Below, in pieces: positions 3,156 to 48,211 of a stretch of DNA of 64,000 nt. A model generated the notes under the pieces. That model saw only the letters and a list, made by a program, of their open reading frames with translations, was not told the origin of the DNA and searched no databases. This stretch comes from Rickettsiales bacterium (GTDB taxonomy: Bacteria; Pseudomonadota; Alphaproteobacteria; UBA8366). The stretch's first letter is position 1, and every line of letters starts with the position of its first letter. The stretch spans positions 15,493 to 79,492 of the forward strand of contig JAYPOZ010000004.1 of NCBI GenBank assembly GCA_038131165.1. The letters are read 5' to 3'. The position numbers were made by a program, and so were the translations under genes.

Positions 3156-3215
3156 TCGCCGCGGGCCGGGTTTTCGGGGCTTGGCGGCGCCACGCGGTCC
3201 TTGCATATTAGCGCG

Positions 3216-27431: not shown

Positions 27432-27441
27432 TAAGCACTTC

Positions 27442-28080
27442 ATGAAGCCATCCGTGGACATACCCGCCGGCCTGCGGCCCACCCCGTGGAGCGACGAGCG
27501 CCGCCGCGCGCATCTGGCGAAGACCCTTGCCAAGGCCCCCGACCCGGAGGCGATCTGGGTGTTCGGCTACGGCTCGCTGATCTGGGACCCGCGCTTCGAG
27601 CCCCTGGAAACCCGCCCCGCGACACTGAAGGACCACAGCCGCTCGTTCTGTTTCTGGACGACAATGGGGCGCGGCACGCCGGAGCGGCCGGGCCTCGGTC
27701 TGGCGATCGTGCCGGGCGGCGGTCCGGTCCAAGGCCTGGCCTACCGGCTCGACCCGGCGACCCTCGACGAGGTGCTGGAGGCGCTCTGGCTGCGCGAGAT
27801 GCGGGCCGGGGTCTATCACGCGGAATGGATGCGGACGGAGACTCCGGGGGGAGACGTACACGCCATCGTGTACGTGGCCAACGACGAACACCCGAATTAT
27901 GTCGGCGAGCTGTCCCTGGAAGATAAAGCCCGCATCATGGCGGTGGCCAAGGGGGAACGAGGCTGGAGTTACGAGTATCTGGGCAGCCTGGTCAAGGAAT
28001 TTGACCGTCTCGGCATTCGCGACGAGCACCACTGCGCGCTGTACGAGCGGATACTGGAAATCGTTGCCGAACGCGCTTAG
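27442..28080 (+). CDS. ChaC-family gamma-glutamylcyclotransferase
   Basis: 212 aa from ATG 27442, with the VFGYGSLIWDP motif and ChaC-like length. Confidence 0.8.
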   Translation: MKPSVDIPAGLRPTPWSDERRRAHLAKTLAKAPDPEAIWVFGYGSLIWDPRFEPLETRPATLKDHSRSFCFWTTMGRGTPERPGLGLAIVPGGGPVQGLAYRLDPATLDEVLEALWLREMRAGVYHAEWMRTETPGGDVHAIVYVANDEHPNYVGELSLEDKARIMAVAKGERGWSYEYLGSLVKEFDRLGIRDEHHCALYERILEIVAERA

Positions 28081-29858: not shown

Positions 29859-30586
29859 GCATTTGGGGCAAGATCATCGGCGGTGCCGCCGGATTTGCCA
29901 TCGGCGGCCCCATCGGCGCGCTGATCGGCGCCGTCGCCGGCCACGCGGTCGACCGCGCTCGGGCGCAATCGTCGACGGCGCCGGAGGACGCGACCAAGTC
30001 CATCGCCTTCACGATCGCGACGATCGCGCTCGGCGCCAAGATGGCGAAAGCGGACGGCGTGGTGACCCGCGACGAGGTCGACGTCTTCAAACAGGTCTTC
30101 CGGGTGCCGCCCGAGGAGGTCAAAAACGTCTCGCGGGTCTTTGATCAGGCGCGCCGGGACAGCGGCGGGTTCGAACCCTATGCGCGCCAGATCTCCGGCA
30201 TGTTCGCCGAACAGCCGGCGGTGCTGGAGGAATTGCTCTATTGCCTGACCCTGATCGCGCGGGCCGACGGTGTGATGCATCCGGGCGAAATCGTCTATCT
30301 GCGCTCGGTCTCCGATATCTTCGGGCTCGACAATGCCGCGTTCGAACGCATCACCGAGATCACCACGGGCGGCGATTCGGCCGATCCCTATAAGGTGCTG
30401 GGCGTCTCCAGGGACCTGTCGAACGACGCGCTCAAGGCGGCGTACCGCAAGCTGGTGCGCGAAAACCACCCGGACAAACTGATCGCCGACGGCATGCCGG
30501 AAGATCTGGTCGAGATGGCCAACGACAAGCTCGCCGCGATCAACAATGCCTACGACAAGATTTCCGCCGAGCGCGGGATCAAATAG
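29855..30586 (+). CDS. djlA: DjlA-like co-chaperone (TM segment + TerB-like domain + C-terminal J domain)
   Basis: Gly-rich N-terminal TM segment, then a C-terminal J domain (DPYKVLGVSRDLSNDALKAAYRKLVRENHPDK). The start overlaps the upstream stop (ATGA). Confidence 0.8.
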   Translation: MSIWGKIIGGAAGFAIGGPIGALIGAVAGHAVDRARAQSSTAPEDATKSIAFTIATIALGAKMAKADGVVTRDEVDVFKQVFRVPPEEVKNVSRVFDQARRDSGGFEPYARQISGMFAEQPAVLEELLYCLTLIARADGVMHPGEIVYLRSVSDIFGLDNAAFERITEITTGGDSADPYKVLGVSRDLSNDALKAAYRKLVRENHPDKLIADGMPEDLVEMANDKLAAINNAYDKISAERGIK

Positions 30587-30603
30587 GCCGGGGGCGGCTC
30601 CGC

Positions 30604-31312: not shown

Positions 31313-31323
31313 GAACGCGGTGT

Positions 31324-31733
<410 letters not shown>

Positions 31734-31994
31734 CCAATTCCCGGTCCGTGACGAAGGTAAGAGCTCATTGATTTGGTCTTGGCGCCCACGCTGTCCCAAA
31801 TAATCGCAAAGGCGAACTAAGAGAGAACATTTAGGGAACGAAATACGGCAGCAGTTGTGCAATGAATTTGTCGAAACACTAGACCTTGTGTTTCATTATG
31901 AATACAACGCGATTCTTTGATTATTTGATGAGAACATGTATTACTTCTATTTCTTCCATTCGATTATTATTTGTTTGCATTGACTTTCCATTTT

Positions 31995-32020: not shown

Positions 32021-32091
32021 GAATGCGCCAGTGCGAAAGTCCGCCTGCGCCTTCCGGGGGGATGAAACGGGGAAGATCGGAAACCGCGCCG

Positions 32092-32550
32092 ATGGCGTTG
32101 TTCGCAGGCACATACGAGAACCGGATCGACCGAAAGGGCCGCGTTTCCCTGCCGGCGGATTTCCGCGCCGAGCTGCCGGTCGAAGGGAACCGCATCGTGT
32201 ATGTCTATCCCTCCCCGCGCGGCGGCGCTCTGGAGGCCTGCGACCGGGCCTTCATGCAGCGCATGGCCGATAGTCTCGAACAATTCGATATGTTCTCCGA
32301 CGAGGAAAACGATCTCGCCTCGATCATCGTCGCCGAAGCGCGCCGGGTCTCGATCGACGGCGAGGGCCGCGTGTTGCTGCCGCCCGAACTGATTGAATTC
32401 GCCGGGATCGACGAACGCGTCACGTTCGTCGGCCGCGGCGCCCGGTTCCAGATCTGGGACCCGACGGCCTTCAGCGAGAGCGCGGCGCAAGCCCGCGAAC
32501 GCGCGAAGGGCCGCACCATGCGGCTGCTGCCGGTGGAGGGACGAGAATGA
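32092..32550 (+). CDS. mraZ: transcriptional regulator MraZ
   Basis: 152 aa from ATG 32092 ([21 protein letters not shown]). Both SpoVT-AbrB repeats are present (DRKGRVSLP and DGEGRVLLP). It is the first gene of the dcw cluster. Confidence 0.9.
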
Positions 32551-33524
32551 GTGCCCCCGCCACCTCTTCCGAAGATCGGCATATCCCCGTCATGCTGGAC
32601 GAGGTGATGGAAGCTTTGGCGCCCCGCGACGGCGGCGCCTATGTCGACGGCACCTTCGGCGTCGGCGGTTATACGCGCGCCATCCTCGATGCGGCGGATA
32701 CCACCGTGTGGGCCATCGACCGGGATCCGGAAGCCATCGAGCGCGGCGCGGCGCTCGCGCGGAAGTACGGTGCCCGCCTGACCATGGTGCAGGGCCGCTT
32801 TGGCGAGATGACGGATCTCCTGCGCGCGGCGGGCGTCGATCGCGTCGATGGCGTGGTGTTCGACCTCGGCGTGTCCTCGCCGCAGATCGACGACGCGGCG
32901 CGCGGATTTTCGTTTCGCTTCGATGGACCGCTCGACATGCGGATGGAAAAACACGGACCAAGCGCCGCGGATGTGGTGAATTCGATGGAGGAGGCCGACC
33001 TCGCCCGCCTCATTCGCCGCCTGGGCGAAGAGAAGCGGGCGCGCCGCGTGGCTCATGCGATCGTGGAGGCGCGGGCGGAGGGGCCGATTACCCGCACGTC
33101 GGAACTCGCCGATATCGTCCGCCGGGTCGTGCCGCAAGGCCGCTCCCGGATCGATCCGGCCACCCGGACCTTCATGGCGCTGCGGCTGCACGTCAACGCC
33201 GAACTCGACGAGTTGGAGGCCGGGTTGCGGGCGGCCGAGGAAATGCTGGCGCCGGGCGGCCGCTTGGTCGTGGTCTCCTTCCATTCGCTGGAAGACCGCC
33301 GGGTGAAGACCTTCCTGCAAGAACGGGGCGGCGCTCTGCCGTCCGGATCGCGCCACCAACCGCCGATCGAATCGCGCCACGCGCCGAGTTTCCGCCTGCT
33401 CCGCCGGGGCGCGGCTCAGGCAAGCGAGGTCGAACTTGGCCGCAATGCGCGCGCCCGTTCCGCCCGCCTGCGCGCCGCCGAACGCACCGCCGCGCCGGCC
33501 TGGCCATTGGAGGCGGCGGCATGA
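32547..33524 (+). CDS. rsmH: 16S rRNA (cytosine1402-N4)-methyltransferase RsmH
   Basis: 325 aa with HIPVML, the SAM motif [20 protein letters not shown] and SFHSLEDR. Confidence 0.95.
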
Positions 33525-33889
33525 GACTGACCCTCGTCATCGTTTGGATCGCGCTCGCCGCCGCCGCCGTCGCCGCGATGTTCCACATTTCCTTCGAGGT
33601 GGAGAAGCTCGAAGCCCGCCTGCACGACGTCAACCGGCAGATCGTGCGCGAGCAGGAAGCCATTCACGTGCTGCAGGCCGAATGGAGCTACCTGAACCGG
33701 CCGCAGCGGCTCGAAACGTTGTCCCAGGAGTTGCTCCCCAATCTGACGCCGGTGGCGTCGACCCAGTTCACCACATTCGCGCGCTTGCCCAAGCGGCACG
33801 AAACCAATGGTGCGGACGAGAACCCCTCGATCGCACCGGCCGGATTTGCGCCGACGGCGGAGTCCATCGCGAGAGGTCGCCTGCAATGA
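33521..33889 (+). CDS. ftsL: cell division protein FtsL (alphaproteobacterial type)
   Basis: 122-aa bitopic protein with an N-terminal TM segment ([17 protein letters not shown]) and a coiled coil ([15 protein letters not shown]). ATGA overlap with rsmH, and in the conserved position. Confidence 0.8.
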
Positions 33890-35655
33890 TCGAACGTCTG
33901 AAACGCGCCCGCCGACTGGCGCATCCGGTCCCTCCCGCACAACGCGGCCAACGCCGCCGACCCTGCGTGCCATGCCCGCCCGAGAGCAATATCGGCCCCG
34001 CGCGCGAAGCGATCGAGACCGGCCGCATGCGCCTCACGATTACCGGGGCGATCCTGACGCTCGCCTTCGCGGTGGTCGGGATGCGCCTTGTCGACGTCTC
34101 CATGCTGCAGGCCGCCGTCGAGCCGCGCGCCTTGCACGCGCCGAAAACCGCCTCGCTGCAATTCAATCGGGCCGATATCGTCGACCGAAACGGCATCCTG
34201 CTCGCAACCAGCCTCCCGACGGCTTCCTTGTATGCCGACCCGCGCCAGGTCTTGGACCCGGCTGTCGCCGCACAGCGCCTTGTGGAAGTGTTTCCCGAAC
34301 TCGACCGCGCCCAGCTCGAGACCCGGCTGGCCTCCAAGCGCGCGTTCGTCTGGATCAAGCGCGACGTGACGCCGCGCGAGCAATGGAACGTGATCCGGCT
34401 CGGCTTGCCCGGAATCGAATTCCGACGCGAGGAAACGCGCGTGTATCCGCAGGGACGCCTGATGTCGCATGTCTTGGGATATGTGGATGTCGACGAAAGA
34501 GGGATCGCCGGCATCGAGCGCCGTTTCGAGCGCGAGCTGCGCGACCGGTCGGCGCCGCTGGCACTGTCGATCGACATGCGGATGCAGCATGCGCTCTGCG
34601 GTGAACTGGCCGCCGCCCAGCAGGAATTCGAGGCGCTGGGCGCGGCCGGATTGATCCTGGATGTACGCACCAGCGAAGTGATGGCGCTCTGTTCGCTGCC
34701 CGATTTCGACCCCAACGAAGCGGGAACGGCGGTCGGCGACGCGCGCTTCAACCGCGTGGCGCTTGGGGTCTATGAACTCGGCTCAGCGTTCAAAATTTTC
34801 AATACCGCGATGGCCCTCGATGCCGGTATCGCCCGGCTCGACGACAGATACGATGCGACGAAGCCGTTGAAGATCTCCCGCTTCACCATCCGGGATTTTC
34901 ACGCGAAGCAGCGTTGGCTCTCGGTCTCCGAGATATTCATGTATTCCTCCAACATCGGGTCCGCGCGGTTGGCCCTGGAAGTCGGCGGCGAAGCGCAACA
35001 GGCGTTTCTTGGCGAGATCGGCCTCCTGAAGCCGTCGGAAATCGAATTGCCCGAGGTCGGCGCGCCCCTGGTGCCCGACGTCTGGCGGCCGATCAGCACC
35101 ATGACCATCGGCTTCGGCCATGGCATCGCGGTCAGTCCGCTGCAAATGGCCGCGGGCGTTGCGGCGATGGTCAACGGCGGCACGTTCCGTCAGCCCACCC
35201 TGATCAAACGCGGCGATGGCGAGGCACCGGCGCAACGGGTGATCTCCGAGAGGACATCGAAGCAGGTCCGTCAATTGATGCGGCTCGTGGTCGAAAAAGG
35301 CACCGGCAGCCGCGCCGAAGCGCCGGGTTATCTTGTCGGCGGCAAGACAGGCACGGCGGAGAAAAGCGGGTCGGGTGGGTATCAGCGCCGCGCGTTGCTT
35401 TCCTCGTTCGTCGGCACCTTCCCCACCGATGATCCCCGCTATGTCGTCTTCGCGCTCTTGGACGAGCCGAAAGGCAACAAGAAAACACATGGATACGCCA
35501 CCGGCGGATGGGTTGCGGCCCCGATCGTCGGCAAGGTGGTCCGCAAGATCGGACCGATCGCCGGAATTCGCCCCCAAGACCCCGATGTGCCACCAATTCG
35601 CCGCGATTTGGCCATGGATCGGACGCCTGGGGCGCGGACACTTGCGTCTTTCTGA
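33886..35655 (+). CDS. ftsI: peptidoglycan D,D-transpeptidase FtsI (PBP3)
   Basis: 589 aa with a TM anchor, a dimerisation domain and a transpeptidase domain. Motifs are SAFK (YELGSAFKIF), SSN (MYSSNIG) and KTG (GGKTGTAE). The ATGA overlap with ftsL supports the start. Confidence 0.9.
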   Translation: MIERLKRARRLAHPVPPAQRGQRRRPCVPCPPESNIGPAREAIETGRMRLTITGAILTLAFAVVGMRLVDVSMLQAAVEPRALHAPKTASLQFNRADIVDRNGILLATSLPTASLYADPRQVLDPAVAAQRLVEVFPELDRAQLETRLASKRAFVWIKRDVTPREQWNVIRLGLPGIEFRREETRVYPQGRLMSHVLGYVDVDERGIAGIERRFERELRDRSAPLALSIDMRMQHALCGELAAAQQEFEALGAAGLILDVRTSEVMALCSLPDFDPNEAGTAVGDARFNRVALGVYELGSAFKIFNTAMALDAGIARLDDRYDATKPLKISRFTIRDFHAKQRWLSVSEIFMYSSNIGSARLALEVGGEAQQAFLGEIGLLKPSEIELPEVGAPLVPDVWRPISTMTIGFGHGIAVSPLQMAAGVAAMVNGGTFRQPTLIKRGDGEAPAQRVISERTSKQVRQLMRLVVEKGTGSRAEAPGYLVGGKTGTAEKSGSGGYQRRALLSSFVGTFPTDDPRYVVFALLDEPKGNKKTHGYATGGWVAAPIVGKVVRKIGPIAGIRPQDPDVPPIRRDLAMDRTPGARTLASF

Positions 35656-35659
35656 GTTA

Positions 35660-37105
35660 GTGAATGGAGCAGAATTGGACCACGCCACGGTTCTGGACGA
35701 CGTAACGATCACAGGTTTGACCGCGGATAGCCGCGCGGTTCGGCCGGGATATCTTTTTGCCGCGATTCCGGGCACGCGGCTCGACGGACGCGATTTCATC
35801 GACGCGGCGGTGCGCGCCGGCGCCACGGCGGTACTGGCGCCGCCGGACGTTACCAAAGACCGCGTATCGCCGGGCATCTCTCTGATCACGGCCGATAACC
35901 CCCGCCGCAGCCTCGCGCGCATGGCCGCCGTTTTCTACGACCGAAAGCCCGAGACCATCGTCGCGGTCACCGGCACCAACGGCAAGACATCGGTCGCCTC
36001 CTTCGCGCGTCAGATATGGAACGCGTTGGGCCGGAAATCCGCAAGCATGGGCACGCTGGGTCTGGTCGGGCCCGGTCTCGGATCCGAAGCGGGGCTGACC
36101 ACGCCCGATCCGGTCGAACTCCACAAAAAACTCCATGAGCTAGCGGAAGCCGGCTTCCAGAACATCGCGATCGAGGCATCCAGCCACGGTCTCGACCAGT
36201 TCCGTCTCGACGGCGTGCCGATCCGCGCCGCCGCGTTCACCAACCTGACCCGCGATCACCTGGATTATCACGGCTCGATGAAGCTTTACCGGAAGGCGAA
36301 AATGCGCTTGTTCCGGGAACTCCTGATGCCCGGCGGCGCCATGGTCGTCAACGCGGAGACGCCGGAATACCCGGCGTTGCTGGAGATCGCCAAGTCGCGC
36401 GGGTTGGAGCTGTTCTCTTACGGTCTGGCCAAGGGCGACATTCGCTGCCGGAGCATGGAGCCGACGGAAGACGGCTGGCATTTGGACCTTGATGTCCTGG
36501 GCACCCAACATCCCCTGAGCTTCCCGCTGATGGGATCGTTCCAGATCGAAAACGCCCTGGCGGCGTTGGGGCTGGTCATTGCCTGCGGTGGCGAGTACGC
36601 GAAGGCCTGCGCGGCGCTGGAAGTCCTCGAAGGCGTGCCGGGACGCATGGAAACCGTGGCCCGACTGCCGTCGGGTGCGCGCATCATCGTCGACTACGCC
36701 CACACGCCCGATGCCTTGGAGACGGTGTTGACGGCCGTACGGCCGCATGTCGCCCGTCGACTGACCGTCGTCTTCGGCTGCGGCGGCGACCGCGATAAGG
36801 GCAAGCGTCCGGAAATGGGGGCGATCGCCGCGAAACTGGCCGACGGCATTATTATCACCGACGACAATCCGCGCCATGAAGACCCGGGAACGATCCGCAA
36901 GGAAATCGCCGCGGCCTGTCCGGACTCCGTCGAAGTCGCCGGCCGGCGGGATGCAATCGGCGTCGCCGTGGCCGATCTTTCGGAAGGGGATATCCTGATC
37001 GTGGCCGGCAAAGGGCACGAGACCGGGCAGATCGTCGGCGACGAAGTCATTCCGTTCTCGGACGCGGATGTGGTCCGGGAATGTGCCCGAGGCGCCGCGC
37101 GATGA
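35660..37105 (+). CDS. murE: UDP-N-acetylmuramoyl-L-alanyl-D-glutamate--2,6-diaminopimelate ligase
   Basis: 481 aa from in-frame GTG 35660. Has the Mur ligase P-loop VTGTNGKTSV and a DNPR motif (TDDNPRHEDP). Confidence 0.9.
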   Translation: MNGAELDHATVLDDVTITGLTADSRAVRPGYLFAAIPGTRLDGRDFIDAAVRAGATAVLAPPDVTKDRVSPGISLITADNPRRSLARMAAVFYDRKPETIVAVTGTNGKTSVASFARQIWNALGRKSASMGTLGLVGPGLGSEAGLTTPDPVELHKKLHELAEAGFQNIAIEASSHGLDQFRLDGVPIRAAAFTNLTRDHLDYHGSMKLYRKAKMRLFRELLMPGGAMVVNAETPEYPALLEIAKSRGLELFSYGLAKGDIRCRSMEPTEDGWHLDLDVLGTQHPLSFPLMGSFQIENALAALGLVIACGGEYAKACAALEVLEGVPGRMETVARLPSGARIIVDYAHTPDALETVLTAVRPHVARRLTVVFGCGGDRDKGKRPEMGAIAAKLADGIIITDDNPRHEDPGTIRKEIAAACPDSVEVAGRRDAIGVAVADLSEGDILIVAGKGHETGQIVGDEVIPFSDADVVRECARGAAR

Positions 37106-37138
37106 GCATTCTTGGATTTTCGGCTCCGGGAGGCGCGC

Positions 37139-38224
37139 ATGCTCTATAATCTTCTGGTGTCGCTCGCCGACGATTTCATCGTCTTCAATCTGTTCCGCTA
37201 TCTGACCTTTCGCACCGGCGGCGCCATTATGACGGCGCTGGTCGTCAGTTTTCTGTTCGGGCCGGCGATCATCAATTGGCTGAAAACGGCGCAGAACGGC
37301 AATACGCCGGTCCGCGAGGACGTGCCGGAAGGGCATCTGAAGAAGATCGGCACGCCGACAATGGGCGGTTTCCTGATTCTGCTCGCGATCTCGATCAGCA
37401 CCTTGCTGTGGGCCGATTTGAGCAACGGTTACGTCTGGATCGTGTTGCTGGTGACCATCGGTTTCGGCGCCGTCGGATTTGCCGACGACTACCTCAAGCT
37501 TACCGGATATAAATCGAAAGGCCTGCCCGGGCGCCTCAAGTTGCTTTTCGAAGTCCTGATCGGCGCCGTTGCCGCCTATTGGGTGATGGCAATTACGCCC
37601 CTCCCCCTGTCGGACGGCCTCGCCATTCCGTTCTTCAAGAACGTGCTGGTCAATCTCGGCTGGTTCTTCATCCCCTTCGCCGTCTTCGTCATGGTCGGCG
37701 CGTCGAACGCGGTCAACCTGACGGACGGGCTCGATGGTCTTGCGATCGTTCCGGTGATGATCGCCGCGGCCTGTTTCGGGTTTATCGCCTATCTCGTGGG
37801 CAACAGCGTTTATTCGGGATACTTGCAGCTCAACTATGTTGTCGGTGTCGGCGAACTGTCTGTCTTTTGCGGGGCGCTGGTTGGCGCCAGCCTCGGGTTT
37901 CTCTGGTACAACGCGCCGCCCGCCATGGTCTTCATGGGCGACACCGGGTCGCTTTCCGTCGGCGGTGCCCTCGGGGCGGTCAGTGTCGTCACGAAGCACG
38001 AAGTGGTGCTCGCCATCATCGGCGGTCTGTTCGTGCTGGAGACGGTGTCGGTCATCGTGCAGGTGGTCTCTTTCAAGCTGACCGGAAAGCGCGTCTTCGC
38101 GATGGCGCCGCTCCACCATCACTTCGAGAAGAAGGGCTGGGCGGAGTCGACCATCGTCATTCGGTTCTGGGTCATTGCTTCCATTCTGGCGCTCGTCGGC
38201 ATGTCGACGCTGAAGCTGAGGTGA
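37139..38224 (+). CDS. mraY: phospho-N-acetylmuramoyl-pentapeptide transferase
   Basis: 361-aa polytopic protein with GGGAGG 5 nt upstream of ATG 37139. MraY motifs [20 protein letters not shown] and HHHFE are present. Confidence 0.95.
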
Positions 38225-38228
38225 CGGC

Positions 38229-39632
38229 ATGATCGACCTGCGCATATTCAAAGATCGCCGCATCGCCGTGATGGGCCTCGGGCTTTCGGGTCTCGTCGCG
38301 GCAGAAGCGTTGTGCGCGGGCGGGGCGGAAGTACTGGCATGGGACGACAACGACCGGCGTCGCGCGGAGGCGGCGCGGCGCGGGGTTCCCGTCACGCCCC
38401 TGGTCGAGGCGGATTGGTCGACCATCGATAGCCTGGTCCTCAGTCCCGGGATTCCGCATCTGCATCCCGCGCCCAATCCGGTCGCTCAGGCAGCCCGCGA
38501 TGCCGGCGTGGAAATCATCGGCGATATCGAATTGCTCATCCGGGCGCAGCCGTCGGCGCGGTATGTCGGCGTCACGGGCACGAACGGAAAATCGACAACC
38601 ACCGCCCTGATCGGCCACATTCTGAAAACCGTGGGGGCGCGGGTGGCCGTCGGCGGCAATCTCGGGTTGCCGGCGCTGTCGCTCGAAGCGCTTGGCGCGG
38701 ACGGAATTTACGTACTCGAGATGTCCTCATATCAGCTCGAGCTGACGCCGTCCGCCCGGTTCGACGTGGCGATCCTGCTCAATCTCAGCCCAGACCATCT
38801 TGACCGGCACGGCGGGATGGCGGGCTATGTCGCGGCAAAGCGCCGAATCTTCGAGCAACAGCCGGAAGCCGCGACCGCGGTCATCGGCGTGGACGACGCG
38901 GAGTCGGTCGGTCTCCATGATGGATTGGTGGCGGCGGGACGCGGGGCCGTGATCCCGATCTCGGCGGACCGTACGGTCGATGGCGGCGTCTATGCCTGCG
39001 GCCCGGTACTCTACGACAATACGACAGGAAGAGAGCATGAGGTGCGCTCGCTTGCCGACATCGAGACACTGCCAGGTGCCCATAATGCGCAGAACGCCGC
39101 GGCGGCGTTTGCCGCCGCGCAAGCGCTCGGCATCGAAAGTTCGGCCATTGCCGCCGCCTTGAAAACCTATCCCGGATTGCCGCACCGCCAGCAGCTGGCG
39201 GCGGTGATCGATGGGGTCAAATACGTCAACGACAGCAAGGCAACGAATCCCGAAGCGGCGGCGAAGGCGCTTTCCAGCTACGATGATATTTTGTGGATTG
39301 CGGGTGGCCGGGGGAAGGAAGGTTCCCTGGCGCCGCTTTATCCCTATTTGCCGCGCGTCCGGCGGGCCTACCTGATCGGCGAGGCGGCCGGCAAGATGGC
39401 GTCGGAGCTGGAGGGGCGCGTCGCCACGCAGTCATGTGGCAATCTGGAGAATGCGCTCGACGCCGCGAGCCGCGCCGCGGCCGGCACCAAGGCGGTGGTT
39501 CTGTTGTCGCCGGCATGCGCGTCTTTCGATCAGTTCAGCAGTTTCGAGGAACGCGGCCGGGTCTTTTGCCGCCTGGCGGCGGCCCTGCCGGGCGGCCGCC
39601 GCGATGTGCGCTATGCCGGGGAGGCTGCCTGA
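38229..39632 (+). CDS. murD: UDP-N-acetylmuramoylalanine--D-glutamate ligase
   Basis: 467 aa with an N-terminal Rossmann motif (VMGLGLSG) and the P-loop VTGTNGKSTT. Confidence 0.9.
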   Translation: MIDLRIFKDRRIAVMGLGLSGLVAAEALCAGGAEVLAWDDNDRRRAEAARRGVPVTPLVEADWSTIDSLVLSPGIPHLHPAPNPVAQAARDAGVEIIGDIELLIRAQPSARYVGVTGTNGKSTTTALIGHILKTVGARVAVGGNLGLPALSLEALGADGIYVLEMSSYQLELTPSARFDVAILLNLSPDHLDRHGGMAGYVAAKRRIFEQQPEAATAVIGVDDAESVGLHDGLVAAGRGAVIPISADRTVDGGVYACGPVLYDNTTGREHEVRSLADIETLPGAHNAQNAAAAFAAAQALGIESSAIAAALKTYPGLPHRQQLAAVIDGVKYVNDSKATNPEAAAKALSSYDDILWIAGGRGKEGSLAPLYPYLPRVRRAYLIGEAAGKMASELEGRVATQSCGNLENALDAASRAAAGTKAVVLLSPACASFDQFSSFEERGRVFCRLAAALPGGRRDVRYAGEAA

Positions 39633-39635
39633 GCC

Positions 39636-40751
39636 ATGTCCATCGCCCGCACGGATACATCGATTTTGGGCCGTTGGTGGTGGACGGTCGACCGCTGGAC
39701 GCTGCTGGCATTGTTCGCCCTGGCGGCAATCGGCGTGGTTCTCTCGCTCGCCGCCAGCCCGCCCGTGGCCGAGCGTATCGGTCTCGACCCGATGCATTTT
39801 ATCCGCCGGCAAGCGACTTACCTCCCGCTGGCCTTGCTGATCATGGTGAGCGTCTCTTTGCTCTCCCCGGTCGGCGCGCGCCGCCTGGCGGTTATCGTCT
39901 TCCTGGGCGCCGTGGTCATGCTGGCAATGACGCTGTTCCTCGGTAATGAGATCAAAGGCGCGCGCCGCTGGCTCATCATCGCCGGATTCTCCCTGCAGCC
40001 TTCCGAATTCGTCAAGCCATCCTTGGCGGTTGTCTGCGCCTGGATGTTTGCGGCCCGCCGATTGGGCGAGGACATTCCCGGCAATTTGATCGCCTTTCTG
40101 CTGTTCTCTCTGGTGGCGGGCCTGTTGCTGTTGCAACCCGACGTCGGCCAGGCGCTGGTCGTCTCGGCGGTATGGTTCGCGCAGTGGTTCCTCGCCGGGC
40201 TGTCGATGATCTGGGTCGCGGTCGCGTTCGGGTGCGGCATCGCGGGCCTGACCATCGCCTATTTCGTCTTTCCGCACGTCGCGAGCCGGATCGACCGTTT
40301 CATCGACCCGTCTTCCGGCGACAGTTACCAGGTCGACCGCGCCATGGAAGCCTTCATGAACGGCGGACTCCTAGGCCGCGGGCCGGGCGAGGGTACGGCC
40401 AAGATGAATCTGCCGGACGCTCATGCCGATTTTATCCTCGCGGTGGCGGGAGAGGAATTTGGCCTGCTGCTCTGTTTGCTGATCGTTGCCCTGTTCGGCT
40501 TTGTCGTGCTGCGCGGGATTTCCAATCTGATGCGCACCACCGACCTGTTTGTGGTGGTCGCGGCGACCGGCCTGCTGGTTCAGTTCGCTCTCCAGGCACT
40601 GATCAACATGGGTTCCACCACCAGTCTGATGCCGACCAAAGGGATGACCCTGCCTTTCGTCTCGTATGGCGGATCGTCCTTGCTCGCTCTGGCATTCGGG
40701 ATGGGGATCCTGCTTGCGCTGACGCGCCGGCGGGCGGGAGGGACGTCATGA
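39636..40751 (+). CDS. ftsW: SEDS-family peptidoglycan glycosyltransferase FtsW
   Basis: 371-aa polytopic protein with SEDS motifs (LQPSEFVKP, PDAHADFIL, LPFVSYGGSS), in the canonical dcw position. Confidence 0.9.
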   Translation: MSIARTDTSILGRWWWTVDRWTLLALFALAAIGVVLSLAASPPVAERIGLDPMHFIRRQATYLPLALLIMVSVSLLSPVGARRLAVIVFLGAVVMLAMTLFLGNEIKGARRWLIIAGFSLQPSEFVKPSLAVVCAWMFAARRLGEDIPGNLIAFLLFSLVAGLLLLQPDVGQALVVSAVWFAQWFLAGLSMIWVAVAFGCGIAGLTIAYFVFPHVASRIDRFIDPSSGDSYQVDRAMEAFMNGGLLGRGPGEGTAKMNLPDAHADFILAVAGEEFGLLLCLLIVALFGFVVLRGISNLMRTTDLFVVVAATGLLVQFALQALINMGSTTSLMPTKGMTLPFVSYGGSSLLALAFGMGILLALTRRRAGGTS

Positions 40752-41887
40752 CCGTAGGGCCTATCGTCCTGGCTGCCGGCGGGACAGGCGGGCATGTCTT
40801 TCCGGCGCAGGCCCTCGCGACCGAACTGCGGCGACGCGGCTATCGTCTGGTTCTGATCGCCGATAAACGCAGCGAAGCCTTCGACGGCGCGTTGGGCGAG
40901 CTCGAAGTCCACAGGATCGACGCCGCCGGCGTGAGCGGTAAGGGACAACTGGCGAAAGTCGCCGCGGTATTGCGTCTCGGGCGCGGTTACTTTCAGGCCC
41001 GGCGTCTGCTCAAGCAGATCACACCGCTGGCGGTTGTGGGATTCGGCAGCTACCCCTCGGCGCCGACGGTTCTCGCCGCCCAGCACCTCGGATGCAAGAC
41101 CGTCATTCACGAGCAGAATGCGGTTCTAGGTCGGGCAAATCGCATGTTGGCGCCGCGCGCGAGCCGAATTGCGACAGCCTTCAAGACGGTGCGCGCGCTC
41201 CGCGCGGCCGATCGCGACAAGGCCGTTTGGACGGGAAATCCCGTTCGCCCCGAGATCGTTGCGTTTCGCGGGCGGCCCTATGTCGCGCCGGCCGCGGAGG
41301 GAGCGATCCGGATCTTGATCGTCGGCGGCAGTCAGGGAGCGAAGATTCTCGGCGAGGTGGTGCCGGACGCGTTGGCCCGTCTCGCGCCCGACCTGCGCAG
41401 CCGGCTTCGCGTCGCCCAACAATGCCGTGGCGGCGAGGCGGAATCCGCCCGGAAAACATTTGCGGCCGCGCATATCCAGGCCGAGGTCGCGCCGTTTTTC
41501 GACGACATGCCGACCCGGTTGGCGGATGCGAGCCTTGTGATCTCGCGCAGCGGCGCGTCGACGATTGCCGAACTGACGACAGTCGGCCGGCCGGCAGTAC
41601 TTGTCCCCTTCGCGCATGCCACGGACGATCATCAAACGGCGAATGCCGAGGGGTTCTGCGACGCGGGCGGGGGCTGGATCATACAGCAGGATGCGCTGAC
41701 CGCCGAGCTTTTGGCGCAGCGGCTGGGGTCCCTGCTGGTCCCTGGCCCGACATTGCCGACCGCTGCGAAATGCGCCGAACGCCTGGGCCGTCCCGGCGCG
41801 GCCGGCGAACTCGCCGATGTCGTGGTTTCGGTTCTCGGCGGCAACGGCAATGGCGATGTTTCGGATCAAAAGGAGGCCGCCGCATGA
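40748..41887 (+). CDS. murG: UDP-N-acetylglucosamine--N-acetylmuramyl-(pentapeptide) pyrophosphoryl-undecaprenol GlcNAc transferase
   Basis: 379 aa with [12 protein letters not shown] and HEQN motifs. ATGA overlap with ftsW. Confidence 0.9.
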
Positions 41888-43308
41888 AAGAGATGCCACT
41901 TTCGATCGGAACCATTCATTTTGTCGGAATCGGCGGCATCGGGATGTCCGGTATCGCCGAGGTAATGCACAATCTGGGGTATCGGGTCCAAGGCAGCGAT
42001 ATCGCCGCGAGCGCCAATGTGAAGCGGCTCGAGCAATTGGGAATATCGGTGGCCATCGGGCACGATGCCGCGAACGTGGCGAGCGCCGACGTCGTGGTGA
42101 TTTCCTCCGCGGTCAAAGCCGACAATCCCGAGGTGACGACGGCCCGCTCCCGGCTGATTCCGGTCGTGCGCCGGGCAGAGATGCTGGGCGAACTGATGCG
42201 GCTCAAGTGGTCCATTGCCGTCGGCGGGACGCATGGCAAGACGACGACCACGTCGTTGATTGCCTCGATACTCGACTACGCCGACTACGACCCGACCGTG
42301 ATCAACGGCGGCATTATCAATGCGTATGGAACGAACGCCCGACTCGGCGCGGGCGAATGGATGGTCGTGGAGGCAGATGAATCCGACGGCACCTTTGTCA
42401 AATTGCCGGCCACGATCGCGGTGGTGACGAATATCGATCCCGAGCATCTCGATTTCTACGGCGATTTCGACAAGGTCAAAGCCGCCTTTCAGACATTTGT
42501 CCAAAACATTCCCTTCTATGGTTTTGCGGCGCTCTGCATTGATCACCCTGAAGTGCAGGCCATGATCGGACAAATCACCGACAGGCGGATCGTCTCATAC
42601 GGCATGAGCCCGCAAGCCGAAGTACGCGGCGAAAACCTGCGCCAAGGGCCCGGCGGCGCCACGTTCGACGTCGTCGTGGAATCGCGCTCGGGAGGCGGCG
42701 AGCGTATCGAGAACGTCCGCCTGCCCATGTTCGGCGAGCACAATGTCCTGAACGCCCTTGCCGGTATCGCAGTTGCCCGGGAGATGGGCATTCCAAGCGA
42801 GACCGTGGTGGGTGGGTGGGCCCGGTGTGCGGGCGTGAAACGCCGTTTTAACAAGACGGGCGAGGCCGACGTAATAAGCGTCATCGACGATTACGGTCAT
42901 CACCCGGTGGAGATTGCCGCCGTTATGAAAGCGGCCCGGGCGGCGACTCGAGGCCGGGTCATCGCGGTCGTGCAGCCGCATCGCTATTCCCGATTGCAGG
43001 ATCTGTTCGAAGATTTCTGCACGTGTTTCAACGAGGCCGATACCGTCATCGTCGCGGATGTTCATGCCGCCGGGGAAGCGCCGATTGAAGGGGTCAATCG
43101 CGACGCGCTCGTGGCCGGGCTGCGTACCCACGGCCATCGCCGTGTCGAGCCGCTCGAAAGTCCCGAAGCGCTGCCGGCATTGATCGCGTCTATGGCAAAG
43201 GCCGGCGACCTCGTCGTTTGTTTGGGCGCGGGGACGATCACGAGTTGGGCTCAGGAACTGCCGGCAGCGCTCGCTGCGTTGCGCCAGAAACGCGCGGAGG
43301 TTGGATAA
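41884..43308 (+). CDS. murC: UDP-N-acetylmuramate--L-alanine ligase
   Basis: 474 aa with [14 protein letters not shown] and the P-loop [16 protein letters not shown] overlap with murG. Confidence 0.9.
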
Positions 43309-44243
43309 TGGTCATGGTTGCCGTCCGACATTCCGAACGTCTTGTCGATCGTTTGCCAAGGGTCCGCGGATCCTATGAAGAAGGGGCCAATATCGGACGC
43401 CGGACCTGGTTCAGGACCGGCGGTGCGGCGGAAGTGCTGTACCAACCGGTCGACGCGGACGATCTGCAGACATTCCTGGAAGACAAGCCCGCAGACGTCC
43501 GGCTGACCGTGATCGGGTTCGGCTCTAATTTGCTGGTGCGCGACGGCGGCATTGACGGCGTCGTGATTGTTCTCGGCGAAGGTTTCTCCGAAATCGAATT
43601 CGATGGCTCGGTGGCCGTGGCCGGCGCCGCCGCCCTCGATGTCAATGTCGCGCGCGCGGCTCAGCAGCGGGGCATTACGGGGTTGGAGTTCTTGTCCGGA
43701 ATACCCGGGACGATCGGTGGCGCGGTCCGCATGAATGCCGGTGCCTATGGCGGCGAGATTGGCGGCGTCGTGATCGACGTCATAGCGCTGGACGCTAGTG
43801 GCGGCGCCCATGTGGTCGAGAGCAAGAAACTTGATTTCTCATATCGGCGCTGTGCTTTGCCGGAGGATTGGATCGTCCTGTCGGCCCGTTTGCGCGGACA
43901 GGTCGGAGACCCCGAAGAAATTGCGGCATGCATGGCGACGATTGCGGCGGCCCGGAGCGAGAGCCAACCAAAGACGCGGACCGGCGGATCGACCTTCGCG
44001 AACCCGCCGGGCTACAAGGCTTGGAAGCTGATCGACGATGCCGGTTGCCGCGGCCTGCGCCGGGGCGGCGCCATGGTCTCCGAGCAGCACTGTAATTTCC
44101 TGTTGAATCTGGGCGACGCGACTTCCTCGGACATCGAGTTGCTGGGCGAAGAAGTTCGCTGCCGGGTGTTGGAGCACTCGGGTGTCCACCTGGAATGGGA
44201 AATTCGGCGCATCGGCAATGCGTGCCGAGGGGCCAAGCCATGA
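43308..44243 (+). CDS. murB: UDP-N-acetylenolpyruvoylglucosamine reductase
   Basis: 311 aa with FAD-binding motifs (WFRTGGAAE, IGFGSNLLVRD). TAATG overlap with murC. Confidence 0.9.
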   Translation: MVMVAVRHSERLVDRLPRVRGSYEEGANIGRRTWFRTGGAAEVLYQPVDADDLQTFLEDKPADVRLTVIGFGSNLLVRDGGIDGVVIVLGEGFSEIEFDGSVAVAGAAALDVNVARAAQQRGITGLEFLSGIPGTIGGAVRMNAGAYGGEIGGVVIDVIALDASGGAHVVESKKLDFSYRRCALPEDWIVLSARLRGQVGDPEEIAACMATIAAARSESQPKTRTGGSTFANPPGYKAWKLIDDAGCRGLRRGGAMVSEQHCNFLLNLGDATSSDIELLGEEVRCRVLEHSGVHLEWEIRRIGNACRGAKP

Positions 44244-45094
44244 CGAAAACAAAGTTGAAAGCAGTGAGGAAAACGGCGAGAGGGTCGGTGCGCCGCCGGG
44301 TCCGGCCTAGTTGGCTGCGGCCGGCGATCGTGACTGCCGGCGCGTTGGCCCTGCTCGGCGGAATCGCGGGCGGCGGAACCTGGTTCGTGCAGTCGGGCAA
44401 GGCTGCTGCCGCGCTGGATCAATTGGAAAATTATTACGAAACCGCCAGCCGGTCCGCGGGCTTCGTGGTCCGTGAAGTCTTGGTGGAAGGGCGGACCGAG
44501 ACGCCGCGGTCGCAATTGTTGTCGGCGCTGCAGGTGGAGCGCGGCGATCTGATGCTCGGGTTCGATGTCGAGACCGCCCGAAAACGATTGGAAGCGCTTG
44601 GATGGGTCGCGGCCGCACGTGTGGAGCGCCGCTTGCCCGATACCATTCGAGTTTCGATCGTCGAGCGTGTCCCGGTCGCGGTCTGGCAGCATAAGGGCAA
44701 GTTTCTGCTGGTGGACGCAGCCGGCGTGACGATCGGGGCCGACGGCGTCGAGCGTTTTCCGGACCTGAAGATCGTCATCGGCGATGATGCGCCGCTGCAT
44801 GCGCAGGCCTTGATCGCGATGCTGCAGCGGCACCCGGAACTGATGAAGCAGACAAAAGCGGCGATCCGGACCGGCAAGCGGCGTTGGAATCTGCGAATGG
44901 AGAGCGGGGTCGATGTCCGCCTGCCCGAAAACGACGCGTTCGAGGCCTGGGACAGGCTTGCGAAATACGAGAAGCAGCACGGCCTCCTGGCGAGGGATAT
45001 CGCGAGCATCGACCTGCGCTTGCCGGACAGAGTCGTCGTTAAAGTCCGTCCGGCCGGTGCGGTGATCAAATCGAAATCGGAGAGCCACACATGA
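44240..45094 (+). CDS. ftsQ: cell division protein FtsQ
   Basis: 284-aa bitopic protein with POTRA-like and FtsQ-type domains (VVREVLVEGRTETP...VAARVERRLPDTIRVSIVER). Its ATG overlaps the murB stop (ATGA). Confidence 0.85.
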   Translation: MTKTKLKAVRKTARGSVRRRVRPSWLRPAIVTAGALALLGGIAGGGTWFVQSGKAAAALDQLENYYETASRSAGFVVREVLVEGRTETPRSQLLSALQVERGDLMLGFDVETARKRLEALGWVAAARVERRLPDTIRVSIVERVPVAVWQHKGKFLLVDAAGVTIGADGVERFPDLKIVIGDDAPLHAQALIAMLQRHPELMKQTKAAIRTGKRRWNLRMESGVDVRLPENDAFEAWDRLAKYEKQHGLLARDIASIDLRLPDRVVVKVRPAGAVIKSKSESHT

Positions 45095-45139
45095 CCCGCT
45101 CTACCGCGTCACGCCATTGGATTGGGGAGTAAAACTGCA

Positions 45140-46378
45140 GTGGCACGTCATGAACAAATCGCGGCGTTGGATGTCGGCAGTACGAAAGTGTGCTGTTTCG
45201 TGGCCGAAAGGGATGAAGGCGAGCGCATTCGCGTCACCGGCATCGGCCATCACGTCAGCGAAGGCCTGAAAGCGGGCAACATCGTCGATATGCGTTTGGC
45301 CGAGCAATCGGTTCTCTCCGCGGTACATGCTGCCGAGCAAATGGCCGGGACGACGATCCGCGAAGTGATCGTCAATCTGGCATCGGGCGAGCCTTCGAGC
45401 CGGTTCGTCGATATCGAGACGGAGCTGACCGCACAGGCGGTCGGCGACAAGGAACTCGGTCGGCTGTTCAACGATCCGAAACTGGCGGATCTCGCATCCA
45501 AGCGCCATCTGGTTCACGCGATTCCGGTCGGCTACGCGATAGACGGATCGAACGGCATACGCGATCCCAAGGGCCTGTACGGTCACAATCTTGGTGTTCG
45601 CGTACATGCAGTGACGGCGTCGCCAAGCGTCTTGCAGAATGTCGTCAATTGCGTCGAAAGGTGCCACCTTCGCGTGGCGGATTTCGCGGTCAATCCTTAT
45701 GCTGCCGGAGTTGCCTGCGTCGTAGAGGATGAATTGGACCTCGGCGTAACGGTCATCGACATGGGCGGCGGCACGACGTCGATCGGCATCTTTTTCGAAG
45801 GCGCCTTGGTCCATGTGGATTCGATTCCGATCGGCGGGGGCCACATCACCAGCGATATCGCGCGCGGGTTGTCCACGCCGATGCATCATGCCGAACGGCT
45901 CAAAACGCTGCATGGCACCTGCCTGCCGTCGCCGACGGACGAGACCGAGATAATCAGCGCGCCGCGAGTCGGCGAAGATGACGAGTCTCAGGCGCCTACT
46001 ATTCCCAAGTCGTTCTTGGTCAGCATTATCGCGCCCCGTGTCGAGGAGACCCTGGAACTTGTTCGCGACCGTCTGTCGGTCAGCGGCATGGACCGCAAGG
46101 CCGGCCGCCGCGTGGTGTTGACCGGTGGGGCAAGCCAACTTCCGGGTGTCCGGGAGTTCGCCGGCCAAATTCTCGACAAGCAGACCCGCATGGGCCGGCC
46201 GATTCGGGTCGCGGGTCTGGCGGAAGCGACATGCGGCCCTGCTTTTTCGGCCTGTGCCGGATTGTTGTCGCTCGGCGTCGACGATCGTGGCGAGGCCTGG
46301 CCGCCGCCGCCTTTGGAAGCGGCAGAGGCGAACGGCGTATTCGGCAAAATCGGAGGATGGCTGCGTGCGAACTTCTGA
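45140..46378 (+). CDS. ftsA: cell division protein FtsA
   Basis: Actin-fold motifs (ALDVGSTKVCC, DMGGGTTSIGIF). GTG 45140 has GGGGAG 10 nt upstream; the TTG at 45122 in the ORF track is the alternative start. Confidence 0.9.
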   Translation: MARHEQIAALDVGSTKVCCFVAERDEGERIRVTGIGHHVSEGLKAGNIVDMRLAEQSVLSAVHAAEQMAGTTIREVIVNLASGEPSSRFVDIETELTAQAVGDKELGRLFNDPKLADLASKRHLVHAIPVGYAIDGSNGIRDPKGLYGHNLGVRVHAVTASPSVLQNVVNCVERCHLRVADFAVNPYAAGVACVVEDELDLGVTVIDMGGGTTSIGIFFEGALVHVDSIPIGGGHITSDIARGLSTPMHHAERLKTLHGTCLPSPTDETEIISAPRVGEDDESQAPTIPKSFLVSIIAPRVEETLELVRDRLSVSGMDRKAGRRVVLTGGASQLPGVREFAGQILDKQTRMGRPIRVAGLAEATCGPAFSACAGLLSLGVDDRGEAWPPPPLEAAEANGVFGKIGGWLRANF

Positions 46379-46483
46379 TTGTCCGATTGAGTTTACCACC
46401 GTCCGGTCACGGCAGCCCGGACGTTCTACCGCCGGAACCGTTCCGGCGCACACTAGCATTGCAACTGGATTGCGGAGATTGTC

Positions 46484-48211
46484 ATGACCATTAAATTATC
46501 AATGCCAAAGCCGGAGGCTGAATTGAAGCCACGGATTACCGTCGTCGGCGTCGGCGGTGCGGGCGGCAATGCCGTCAACAACATGATTCAAGCCAACCTC
46601 GAAGGAGTCGACTTCGTGGTTGCGAATACGGATGCGCAAGCGCTCGGCCAATCGCAAGCGGATCACGCCATCCAACTCGGTGCGGCGATCACGCAGGGTC
46701 TCGGCGCCGGATCGCGCCCGGAAATCGGCCGGGCCGCGGCCGAGGAATCCCTGGACGATATTCTCGATCACCTGGCGGGGAGCCACATGGTCTTCGTCAC
46801 CGCCGGCATGGGGGGTGGGACCGGTACCGGCGCCGCGCCCGTGATTGCGCGCTCGGTCCGCGAGCACGGCATCCTGACCGTGGGTGTCGTCACGAAGCCT
46901 TTCCATTTTGAAGGCAACCATCGCATGAAGATGGCCGAGGAAGGGATCGAGGAACTCCAGCAGTTCGTGGATACGCTGATCATCATTCCGAACCAGAACC
47001 TTTTCCGCGTGGCCAACGAGAAGACGACTTTCGCCGAAGCCTTCAAAATGGCGGATAACGTGCTTTATTCGGGTGTGCGCGGGGTGACCGACCTGATGGT
47101 GATGCCGGGCTTGATCAATCTCGATTTTGCCGATGTTCGCACGGTAATGAGCGAGATGGGCAAGGCGATGATGGGCACGGGAGAAGCGGAAGGCGAGGGC
47201 CGGGCAATTGCCGCTGCAGAAGCCGCGATTTCGAATCCGTTGCTCGACGATATCACCATGAAGGGCGCGCGGGGCGTTCTGATCAATATCACCGGTGGTG
47301 GGGATATGACGCTCTTCGAGGTCGACGAAGCCGCCAATCGCATCCGCGAGGAAGTCGATAACGAAGCGAACATCGTCTTCGGTTCGACGTTCGACCAGGC
47401 GATGGAGGGCCTCTTGAGGGTTTCCGTCGTGGCGACGGGGATCGAGGCGGAATCTGTCGCATCGCCGCGCCCCCTGCCGTCGGGGCTTTCGACGCTGTCG
47501 CCGAGGACGGCCCGTCCCGCGGTCCCGGCCGCCGAACAGCCGGAGGCACCGGCCGTTCGGGCCACGCCTGCGGCAGCGGAAGCGAAACCGGCGGTACGGG
47601 TCGAGGAAGAGCCGGAGACGGACGAACCCGAAGCTCTACTCCTCGACGATATCGAAGAGACCGAGGAGGCGCCGCAAGACCGCGAGGCTGCGGTGGCGGC
47701 GCCTGCTGCGCTCGCGCCGAAGCGTCAGGTGACGGCCAAGGCTCGGGTGACGCTTTCGAAACCTGTTGCCGAAGCGACTCAGGAGCCCGACACGGATGGC
47801 GGCAGCGTCGAGTCGGAGAAAGAAGAGCCGCAATTGATGCAACGGCCCGCTCGCCGGTCGCCGTTCATTCCGCCGAAGCCGGTCGCTCCCGAAGAAAGCA
47901 CCGGGGCTAAGGAGCCGGAACCGTTTGCGGCGGCGGCGATGGAGAATGCCCGCAGCGAAACGCAGAAGGAACGCCGCCGGCCCAGCCTGTTCGAGAGGAT
48001 GACCGGCGCGGGAAAGTCGACGGCGACGGAGACGACTCCGGCGGGCAATCCTAAGGCGCCTGCTTCCGTGACGCCGATGCCCAAGCCGGAAGCGCCTGTG
48101 GCGGAAAAAACGGAAGAGGCCGCTGCGCCGAGTGACGAACGGTTCCAGTTGTCGCAGGCTGAAGAAGAAATGCTGGATATTCCGGCATTCTTGCGCCGCC
48201 AGGCGAACTAA
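46484..48211 (+). CDS. ftsZ: cell division GTPase FtsZ with a long disordered linker
   Basis: 575 aa with the tubulin signature [17 protein letters not shown]-rich linker of about 240 aa follows, then the C-terminal peptide [12 protein letters not shown]. Confidence 0.97.

Follow-up and report, generated by a model that had tools for sequence, protein, structure and literature searches.

An inherited dcw operon variant without murF and ddl in a clade of uncultured marine Alphaproteobacteria

The 64-kb stretch of DNA analyzed here, referred to as the window, carries fourteen genes on its plus strand in the order mraZ-rsmH-ftsL-ftsI-murE-mraY-murD-ftsW-murG-murC-murB-ftsQ-ftsA-ftsZ (32092-48211), as assigned through NCBIfam or Pfam. 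They follow one another on one strand, from mraZ through ftsZ, with fts and mur genes together, as expected of a dcw cluster. This cluster is among the most conserved of bacterial gene arrangements, and both cell shape and the co-translational assembly of Mur enzymes have been connected with its order. Both the order and the names had been proposed in the original prediction, and NCBIfam hidden Markov models (HMMs) return the same identity for every gene.

The operon begins with mraZ (32092..32550), which encodes 152 aa as translated from the ATG at 32092, within a longer reading frame that starts at 32023; its orthologue in L163, a locus of the clade described below, has the MraZ domain PF02381. 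The next gene, rsmH or mraW (32547..33524, 325 aa), shares its first 4 nt with the end of mraZ, and its counterpart on clade locus L001 is also 325 aa long, matches at 99% by tblastn and contains PF01795. A translated reading frame for a small membrane protein (33521..33889, 122 aa) has no family match and takes the name ftsL from its position, where the L001 gene call is likewise 122 aa. The product of ftsI (33886..35655, 589 aa), the PBP3 D,D-transpeptidase, is identical to an L001 protein with PF03717 and PF00905, and shows the motifs SAFK, SSN and KTG at residues 300, 354 and 487. The murE gene (35660..37105) encodes 481 aa from a GTG at 35660 and scores 601.6 bits against NF001124 (cut-off 476). 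The original prediction was right that this MurE has a normal length, but its start is not the only one called: the gene caller for an identical contig chose the TTG at 35675, for 476 aa, a choice that has no effect on the finding. The equivalog-level score and the DNPR motif (DDNPRHED) in the C-terminal domain, a motif tied to MurE substrate specificity, identify the enzyme as the meso-diaminopimelate (meso-DAP)-adding ligase.

The genes that follow are mraY (37139..38224, 361 aa; TIGR00445, 396.8 bits), murD (38229..39632, 467 aa; TIGR01087, 372.2 bits), ftsW (39636..40751, 371 aa; TIGR02614, 342 bits), murG (40748..41887, 379 aa; TIGR01133, 299.9 bits), murC (41884..43308, 474 aa, without a Ddl domain; TIGR01082, 513.9 bits) and murB (43308..44243, 311 aa; NF010480, 365.1 bits). 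The product of ftsQ (44240..45094, 284 aa) matches NCBIfam FtsQ models weakly, and its identical copy in L001 has PF08478 (POTRA_1) and PF03799 (FtsQ_DivIB_C). The block ends with ftsA (45122..46378, 418 aa; TIGR01174, 347.5 bits) and ftsZ (46484..48211, 575 aa; TIGR00065, 408.3 bits). These fourteen remaining genes probably make up a tightly packed operon with translational coupling. Internal promoters or terminators that could mark scars did not exceed shuffled expectation within the operon.

The canonical alphaproteobacterial dcw cluster shares with the window these fourteen genes, their order and strand, and their overlapping or nearly abutting boundaries, as well as its flanks, an amidase gene and RNase P RNA upstream and lpxC-bamD-recN-ligA downstream. 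The canonical cluster also has murF and ddl, whereas the window has neither. That murF should follow murE and ddl should follow murB, as had been supposed, is borne out by relatives outside the clade: 126 of 132 loci have murF at that position, and 65 of 68 have ddl. In the window, the murF slot is a 33-nt spacer (37106..37138) with a GGGAGG ribosome-binding site, bounded by the murE stop TGA at 37103-37105 and the mraY ATG at 37139. The ddl slot is the sequence ATGA (44240..44243, plus strand), in which the murB stop overlaps the ftsQ start. Both junctions thus agree with those first described from the sequence.

The accompanying claim, that the junctions leave neither room for the two genes nor a remnant of them, also stands, and extends to the whole window. 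By tblastn, the 33-nt spacer has no MurF similarity, and a six-frame search of all 64 kb, in which E. coli MurF and DdlB were the queries, brought up no homologue of either protein. The matches were to the paralogues MurE, MurD and MurC, and nothing Ddl-like appeared (best E = 0.14). By Pfam, 20 genes in the flanks are ordinary housekeeping genes.

Mur chimeras such as MurE-MurF and MurC-Ddl are known from other phyla, although the known set includes no MurF-Ddl chimera (PMC10214165), and a bifunctional neighbor within the operon might by that precedent stand in for MurF, Ddl or both. HMM matches, however, run nearly end to end through the candidate enzymes (MurE residues 9-477 of 481, MurC 11-459 of 474, MurB 12-305 of 311), all of single-enzyme length and covered by single-function models with no added domain. 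Scores against bifunctional models fall far below the cut-offs, at 490 bits for MurE against the MurE/MurF model PRK11929 (cut-off 1023) and 298.6 bits for MurC against the MurC/Ddl model PRK14573 (cut-off 1015). Fusions are therefore excluded, as the original prediction had concluded from the normal lengths of MurE and MurB, and the chance that a bifunctional neighbor supplies either function is negligible.

Both junctions are common to 14 independent contigs from one uncultured marine alphaproteobacterial clade. The set comprises the metagenome-assembled genomes (MAGs) GCA_038127745.1 and GCA_030752345.1, the Red Sea MAG PBVU01, eight JGI metagenome contigs, one Tara scaffold, and two long-read ENA contigs of 2.17 Mb (2,166,077 bp, ERZ28548085) and 1.71 Mb (1,709,049 bp, ERZ28548087). 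Samples in which the clade is abundant, such as JGI Ga0181579 and Ga0070726, contain 99-100% identical contigs. Members with the variant order span several genera-level lineages, with GC contents of 52-65%. Wherever murE-mraY is covered, in 12 clade loci, the spacer is 33 nt long, while its sequence differs among them, and the murB/ftsQ ATGA recurs in clade loci L001, L083, L163, L164 and L165. The clade is known mostly from MAGs or metagenome contigs, one of which is mislabelled as Verrucomicrobiales, as might be expected if the gaps were artefacts of assembly, binning or frameshifts. Such an origin is hardly conceivable, since the 14 contigs have identical junctions and differ in project, sample, assembler and sequencing technology, polished long reads among them, and since the reading frames on both sides of the gaps are intact.

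The order is fixed across the clade but does not extend to wider relatives. L173, the nearest outgroup, whose MurE, MurC and MraY are respectively 67%, 77% and 82% identical to those of the window, is canonical, with murE-murF-mraY and with ddl between murB and ftsQ. The absence of murF and ddl is a real, inherited variant of gene order, unusual for Alphaproteobacteria. In L173 the ATGA couples murB to ddl. The ATGA overlap and the Met-Thr start of ftsQ are only suggestive of ftsQ having taken over the ATGA start site of ddl. Such an overlap is found in 64 of 80 canonical loci, and this reading is given little weight because the ATGA itself dictates a second codon that begins with A.

Other alphaproteobacterial lineages depart from the canonical cluster in part. 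In L110 both genes are gone, and what is left of murF between murE and mraY is a 161-aa remnant (PRK14093 positions 255-327, E = 9e-9). Single losses are seen in L096, where only murF is missing (part covered), and in L064 and L140, where only ddl is missing. Micavibrio-type loci (L037, L051, L068, L069 and L167), also alphaproteobacterial, resemble the window in having no murF in the murE-mraY slot. They differ in that a spacer or open reading frame of about 500 nt is left there, against 33 nt in the window, and in that a divergent 530-aa MurF-family gene and an alpha/beta hydrolase gene, reversed, lie between murB and a DdlA-type ddl. The Micavibrio-type MurF scores 233 bits against TIGR01143, below the 289-bit cut-off. 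Because the insertion lies between murB and ddl, both functions remain inside that cluster. The window does not have this rearrangement, as its murB abuts ftsQ and its 64 kb contain no such genes. The L110 remnant, and the divergent MurF beside a DdlA-type ligase in Micavibrio-type loci, provide precedents among relatives for redundancy followed by loss.

MurE, MraY and FtsI look fully functional, which implies that the pentapeptide precursor is still made; by this pathway logic, murF and ddl are almost certainly encoded elsewhere in the genome. The surrounding meso-DAP-type MurE, MraY, MurG and FtsI (SxxK/SxN/KTG) would make and use a precursor terminating in D-Ala-D-Ala. In the strain represented by the window, the present site of murF and ddl would lie at least 35 kb upstream or at least 16 kb downstream of the murE-mraY/ftsZ ends.

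We searched for such a site with three MurF queries, from the near outgroups L004 and L168 and from a Micavibrio-type locus, against a collection of 5.8 billion proteins. Among the best 120 matches per query, none fell on the clade's 2.17-Mb, 1.71-Mb or 0.54-Mb contigs, a weak negative in that a native-type clade MurF is expected right at the edge of the best 120. Nor did the 120 matches listed place the Micavibrio-type MurF family on the large contigs of the clade. Further contigs looked up after the protein-database searches showed no clade murF or ddl. One candidate clade MurF, P0271 on a 20,093-bp contig, was rejected as a coincidence, its contig being Micavibrio-like. The seven most clade-like matches of the alpha type were likewise rejected, all seven occurring in canonical murE-murF-mraY context. 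A tblastn search of PLSDB for a plasmid- or chromid-borne murF gave no hits other than mislabelled chromosomes, chromids and unrelated taxa.

That the genes were not found, whether by tblastn of the window or in the MurF protein searches, is the sole support for a clade truly without MurF and Ddl, in which the D-Ala-D-Ala terminus would be missing or would be made by non-homologous enzymes. For the clade, these searches covered the contigs and matches examined. A D,D-transpeptidase requires a D-Ala-D-Ala donor, and FtsI retains the three penicillin-binding motifs of such an enzyme. MurE, MraY, MurG, MurB, MurC and MurD are full length with equivalog scores, and GC contents of 52-65% on megabase-scale contigs are unlike a reduced endosymbiont genome. 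True absence is accordingly rated very improbable.

The explanation that we regard as highly likely is deletion of both genes from the operon in the stem of the clade, with their functions encoded elsewhere. In the most likely history, an additional functional murF and ddl would at first have been present, through native duplication or as an acquired pair, and made the operon copies redundant. Each copy within the operon would then have been lost in its own clean deletion, with the junctions tidied by selection. The deletion of ddl may have left behind the ATGA coupling site of murB and ddl that ftsQ now uses.

A special case of stem deletion, and no alternative to it, is the original suggestion that murF and ddl left together, to reside now side by side or in a small operon that might include alanine racemase, and so to place the D-Ala-D-Ala branch under separate regulation. 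The two genes catalyze consecutive steps; the ddlA-murF transcription unit of S. aureus and B. subtilis is a precedent (PMC3996572, PMC5126115); in the Micavibrio-type L037 and L167 murF is out of its slot and two genes from ddl; and the L110 operon lost both genes. Against it, murF and ddl are 7 kb apart in the ancestral order, so that two separate deletions are needed in any case. L096 (murF, part covered), L064 and L140 (ddl) each lost one of the pair, and joint loss is therefore not obligatory. From these comparisons, a murF-ddl pairing is plausible, and a joint departure is a real possibility that we put at somewhat below even chances.

The second copies might instead be foreign. In that case a murF-ddl cassette, or a ligase of altered specificity (D-Ala-D-Ser or D-Ala-D-Lac type), would have replaced the native genes, after which the operon copies were dispensable. 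We consider such replacement unlikely. Were it true, the clade would be a free-living marine lineage whose D-Ala branch had been acquired horizontally and was regulated separately, and the terminus of its stem peptide might be atypical.

A variant of this type is already known in other bacteria, and other alphaproteobacteria do not have murD in its normal position. In B. subtilis, mraY comes straight after murE, and ftsQ/divIB straight after murB. The window resembles Bacillus and Staphylococcus in these two adjacencies and in a cluster that leaves the D-Ala-D-Ala genes outside it. In S. aureus and B. subtilis those genes form the ddlA-murF transcription unit (PMC3996572, PMC5126115). The window differs in that its cluster retains murC, and the resemblance is convergent because the Bacilli belong to another phylum. 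There is also precedent for a clade marked by certain genes missing from a cluster that is otherwise conserved (PMC8871954), involving a different gene pair, whereas the variant described here occurs at a far shallower taxonomic level. Literature searches, not aimed at the clade itself, found no account of its variant.

What the clade demonstrates is that the D-Ala-D-Ala branch can lose both its genes from the operon cleanly in free-living, non-reduced Alphaproteobacteria, and nature thereby provides a test of how strictly gene order is constrained. The finding is one of gene order, and would imply new biochemistry only if the missing genes proved foreign or absent. The murE-33 nt-mraY and murB-ATGA-ftsQ junctions offer a simple synapomorphy by which the clade can be spotted in metagenomes.

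Both murF and ddl are missing from the dcw operon of the window. The window is GC-rich (62-68%), and every gene from 32.0 to 48.2 kb reads on the + strand. The same gene assignments as in the original prediction come from NCBIfam HMMs, which recognize MurE (NF001124, 601.6 bits against a cut-off of 476), MraY (396.8 bits), MurD (372.2 bits), FtsW (342 bits), MurG (299.9 bits), MurC (513.9 bits), MurB (NF010480, 365.1 bits), FtsA (347.5 bits) and FtsZ (408.3 bits). FtsQ is a weak NCBIfam match; an identical copy on another contig contains POTRA_1 and FtsQ_DivIB_C domains. Upstream of murE are mraZ, rsmH, an ORF in the ftsL position and ftsI. No promoter or terminator signal above chance was found inside the operon.

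In the canonical alphaproteobacterial cluster, murE is followed by murF and then mraY, and murB by ddl and then ftsQ. Here, a spacer of 33 nt with a GGGAGG ribosome-binding site separates the murE stop codon (TGA, ending at 37105) from the mraY ATG at 37139, and murB and ftsQ overlap in an ATGA (44240-44243) that contains the TGA of the one and the ATG of the other. Fusion of MurE with MurF, or of MurC with Ddl, is excluded because single-function models cover each flanking protein end to end and bifunctional models score far under cut-off on the window proteins. Searched by tblastn against the whole 64 kb, E. coli MurF and DdlB match only the paralogues MurE, MurD and MurC, with nothing Ddl-like. 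The clean absence of both genes, as originally described together with the two junctions and the exclusion of fusions, is thus borne out by junctions, HMMs and tblastn.

Relatives were collected by an MraY scan of one genome per GTDB species, a MurE scan of JGI metagenomes, and look-up of a 90%-identity MraY cluster (119 members) followed by contig retrieval for one member; gene order at each locus was read by tblastn with the window proteins plus the MurF and Ddl of E. coli and of another dcw locus, L004. MAG GCA_038127745.1 has a 13-kb contig that encodes the exact MraY of the window and keeps the same gene order. Fourteen loci (52-65% GC) group with the window as one clade, their MurE being 78-100% and their MraY 88-100% identical: L001 and L165 from NCBI MAGs, L003 from a Red Sea MAG that carries a Verrucomicrobiales label, L083-L090 from JGI metagenome contigs, L166 from a Tara scaffold, and L163 and L164 from polished long-read contigs, 2.17 and 1.71 Mb in length. 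The murE-mraY junction is covered in 12 loci and in every one reads TGA, exactly 33 nt, ATG; the spacer varies in sequence and retains its Shine-Dalgarno motif. All five that cover the murB-ftsQ junction show the ATGA overlap and lack ddl. Because the clade loci share this arrangement, it is not a product of faulty assembly or a quirk of one strain, but an old trait, fixed in the clade.

The Red Sea locus (PBVU01000091.1, from "Verrucomicrobiales bacterium RS414") encodes FtsI, MurE and MraY proteins 75-89% identical to those of the window, and rsmH and murD products 60-65% identical; it has the same 33-nt murE-mraY junction. It is plainly alphaproteobacterial, and its MAG was probably mis-binned or mislabelled. 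NCBI labels other clade members Rickettsiales, Rhodospirillaceae, Alphaproteobacteria or Pseudomonadota. FtsZ has 575 residues in the window (46484-48211) versus 420-425 in L163 (19337-20599) and L164 (19338-20615), with a core 86% identical; the difference in length probably lies in the disordered linker ahead of the conserved C-terminal peptide.

The gene order might have been common among relatives generally, but outside the clade it is not: murF is present between murE and mraY in 126 alphaproteobacterial loci and absent in 6, and ddl is present between murB and ftsQ in 65 and absent in 3. The closest canonical outgroup found, L172/L173 on a 2.0-Mb ENA contig, is 71% identical to the window in MraZ, 65% in FtsI, 67% in MurE, 66% in MurG, 77% in MurC and 82% in MraY. 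Its order at L173 is fully canonical, with a GTGA overlap of murE and murF, a 9-nt gap from murF to mraY, an ATGA overlap of murB and ddl, and a 13-nt overlap of ddl and ftsQ. With L173 canonical and the whole clade lacking both genes, this comparison of gene orders places both losses on the clade stem, later than the divergence from L173-like lineages and earlier than the radiation of the clade itself.

FtsI of the window keeps its SAFK, SSN and KTG motifs, and MurE its DNPR motif. By established enzymology, the clade cell should therefore still make and cross-link a meso-DAP pentapeptide, and since this needs both Ddl and MurF activity, murF and ddl should be encoded elsewhere. On these intact motifs, the proposal that the two genes are expressed apart from the operon stands; that they were also relocated together, as first suggested, is a possibility. 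Three MurF searches of a large protein collection returned no protein from the Mb-scale contigs of the clade among the best 120 matches per query, but a native clade MurF is expected to be about 52-57% identical to the queries, at the edge of the best 120 matches listed, and so the result says little. All seven sampled alpha-type MurF matches sit in canonical operons. There is a small chance that the D-Ala branch of the clade is xenologous or of altered specificity; that the clade has no D-Ala branch at all is far less likely.

In the history we propose, a copy of murF/ddl, duplicated or acquired, would have created redundancy before two independent deletions removed the genes from the operon. 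The murB/ddl ATGA coupling site appears to have been preserved through the ddl deletion: clade FtsQ begins Met-Thr, L173 Ddl begins MTK... and L173 FtsQ begins MRRIKG. Little weight attaches to this match, since an ATGA overlap dictates A as the first base of the second codon, and such an overlap occurs in 64 of 80 canonical loci. Locus L110, of another alphaproteobacterial lineage, also lacks both genes, and its 510-nt murE-mraY spacer contains a 161-aa ORF (2840-3325, +) that matches positions 255-327, the middle, of the alphaproteobacterial MurF model PRK14093 (E = 9e-9). This ORF is a murF pseudogene in decay, and its state implies that a second functional copy predated the death of the operon copy.

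Lineage-specific gene absence from the dcw cluster is already documented (PMC8871954). In Micavibrio-type loci (L037, L051, L068, L069, L167), the usual murE-mraY site lacks murF, and the murB-ftsQ interval holds a divergent 530-aa MurF-family gene and an alpha/beta hydrolase gene, inverted together, adjoined by a DdlA-type ligase of 408-435 aa (L037 17225-20937; L167 2357-6023; also L051 and L068). The MurF-family protein scores under the TIGR01143 cut-off and has no N-terminal Mur_ligase Pfam match; its family is large (>100 clusters in public data) and confined to the Micavibrio-type group. Elsewhere, murF is missing from its slot in L096, ddl alone in L064 and L140, and murD in six alphaproteobacterial loci (L018, L036, L046, L057, L080, L140), where ftsW directly follows mraY. 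With several lineages each lacking one gene from its slot, it follows that single mur genes have left the operon repeatedly in Alphaproteobacteria, in a few percent of lineages.

In the B. subtilis dcw cluster, murE lies beside mraY and murB beside ftsQ/divIB. The clade pattern is the normal state of Bacillus and Staphylococcus, with these same adjacencies and with ddl and murF elsewhere; the window is thus an alphaproteobacterial, convergent case of a known arrangement. In those genera ddlA-murF forms a transcription unit of its own (PMC3996572; PMC5126115). MurF-Ddl is not among the known Mur chimeras (PMC10214165).

The surrounding gene content is unremarkable for an alphaproteobacterium, with genes for aconitase, ChaC, D-Glu cyclase, DUF3750, a DjlA-like protein, an AmpD-type amidase and RNase P RNA upstream, and lpxC, bamD, recN and ligA downstream. 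The bacterial RNase P RNA (RF00010, 292 bits; 31323-31735, +) lies between the amidase gene and mraZ, directly upstream of the latter; at this place the canonical outgroup loci L173 and L174 have an intergenic amidase-mraZ gap of about 830-870 nt, and in L163 and L164 a small minus-strand ORF is called. A gene for a 604-aa ABC-F type ATPase, between the DjlA-like and amidase genes in L173 (1691-3505) and L174 (1558-3372), is missing from the window (about 30586-30600), L163 and L164; it seems that several genes of this neighbourhood, murF and ddl among them, are gone from the clade. At a distance of 3-5 kb upstream from the operon, a D-glutamate cyclase gene (PF07286; 28111-29091, -) adjoins a ChaC-like gamma-glutamyl cyclotransferase gene (27253-28080, +); the pair is conserved in L163 and L164, and a link to turnover of D-Glu or of the peptidoglycan peptide is possible.
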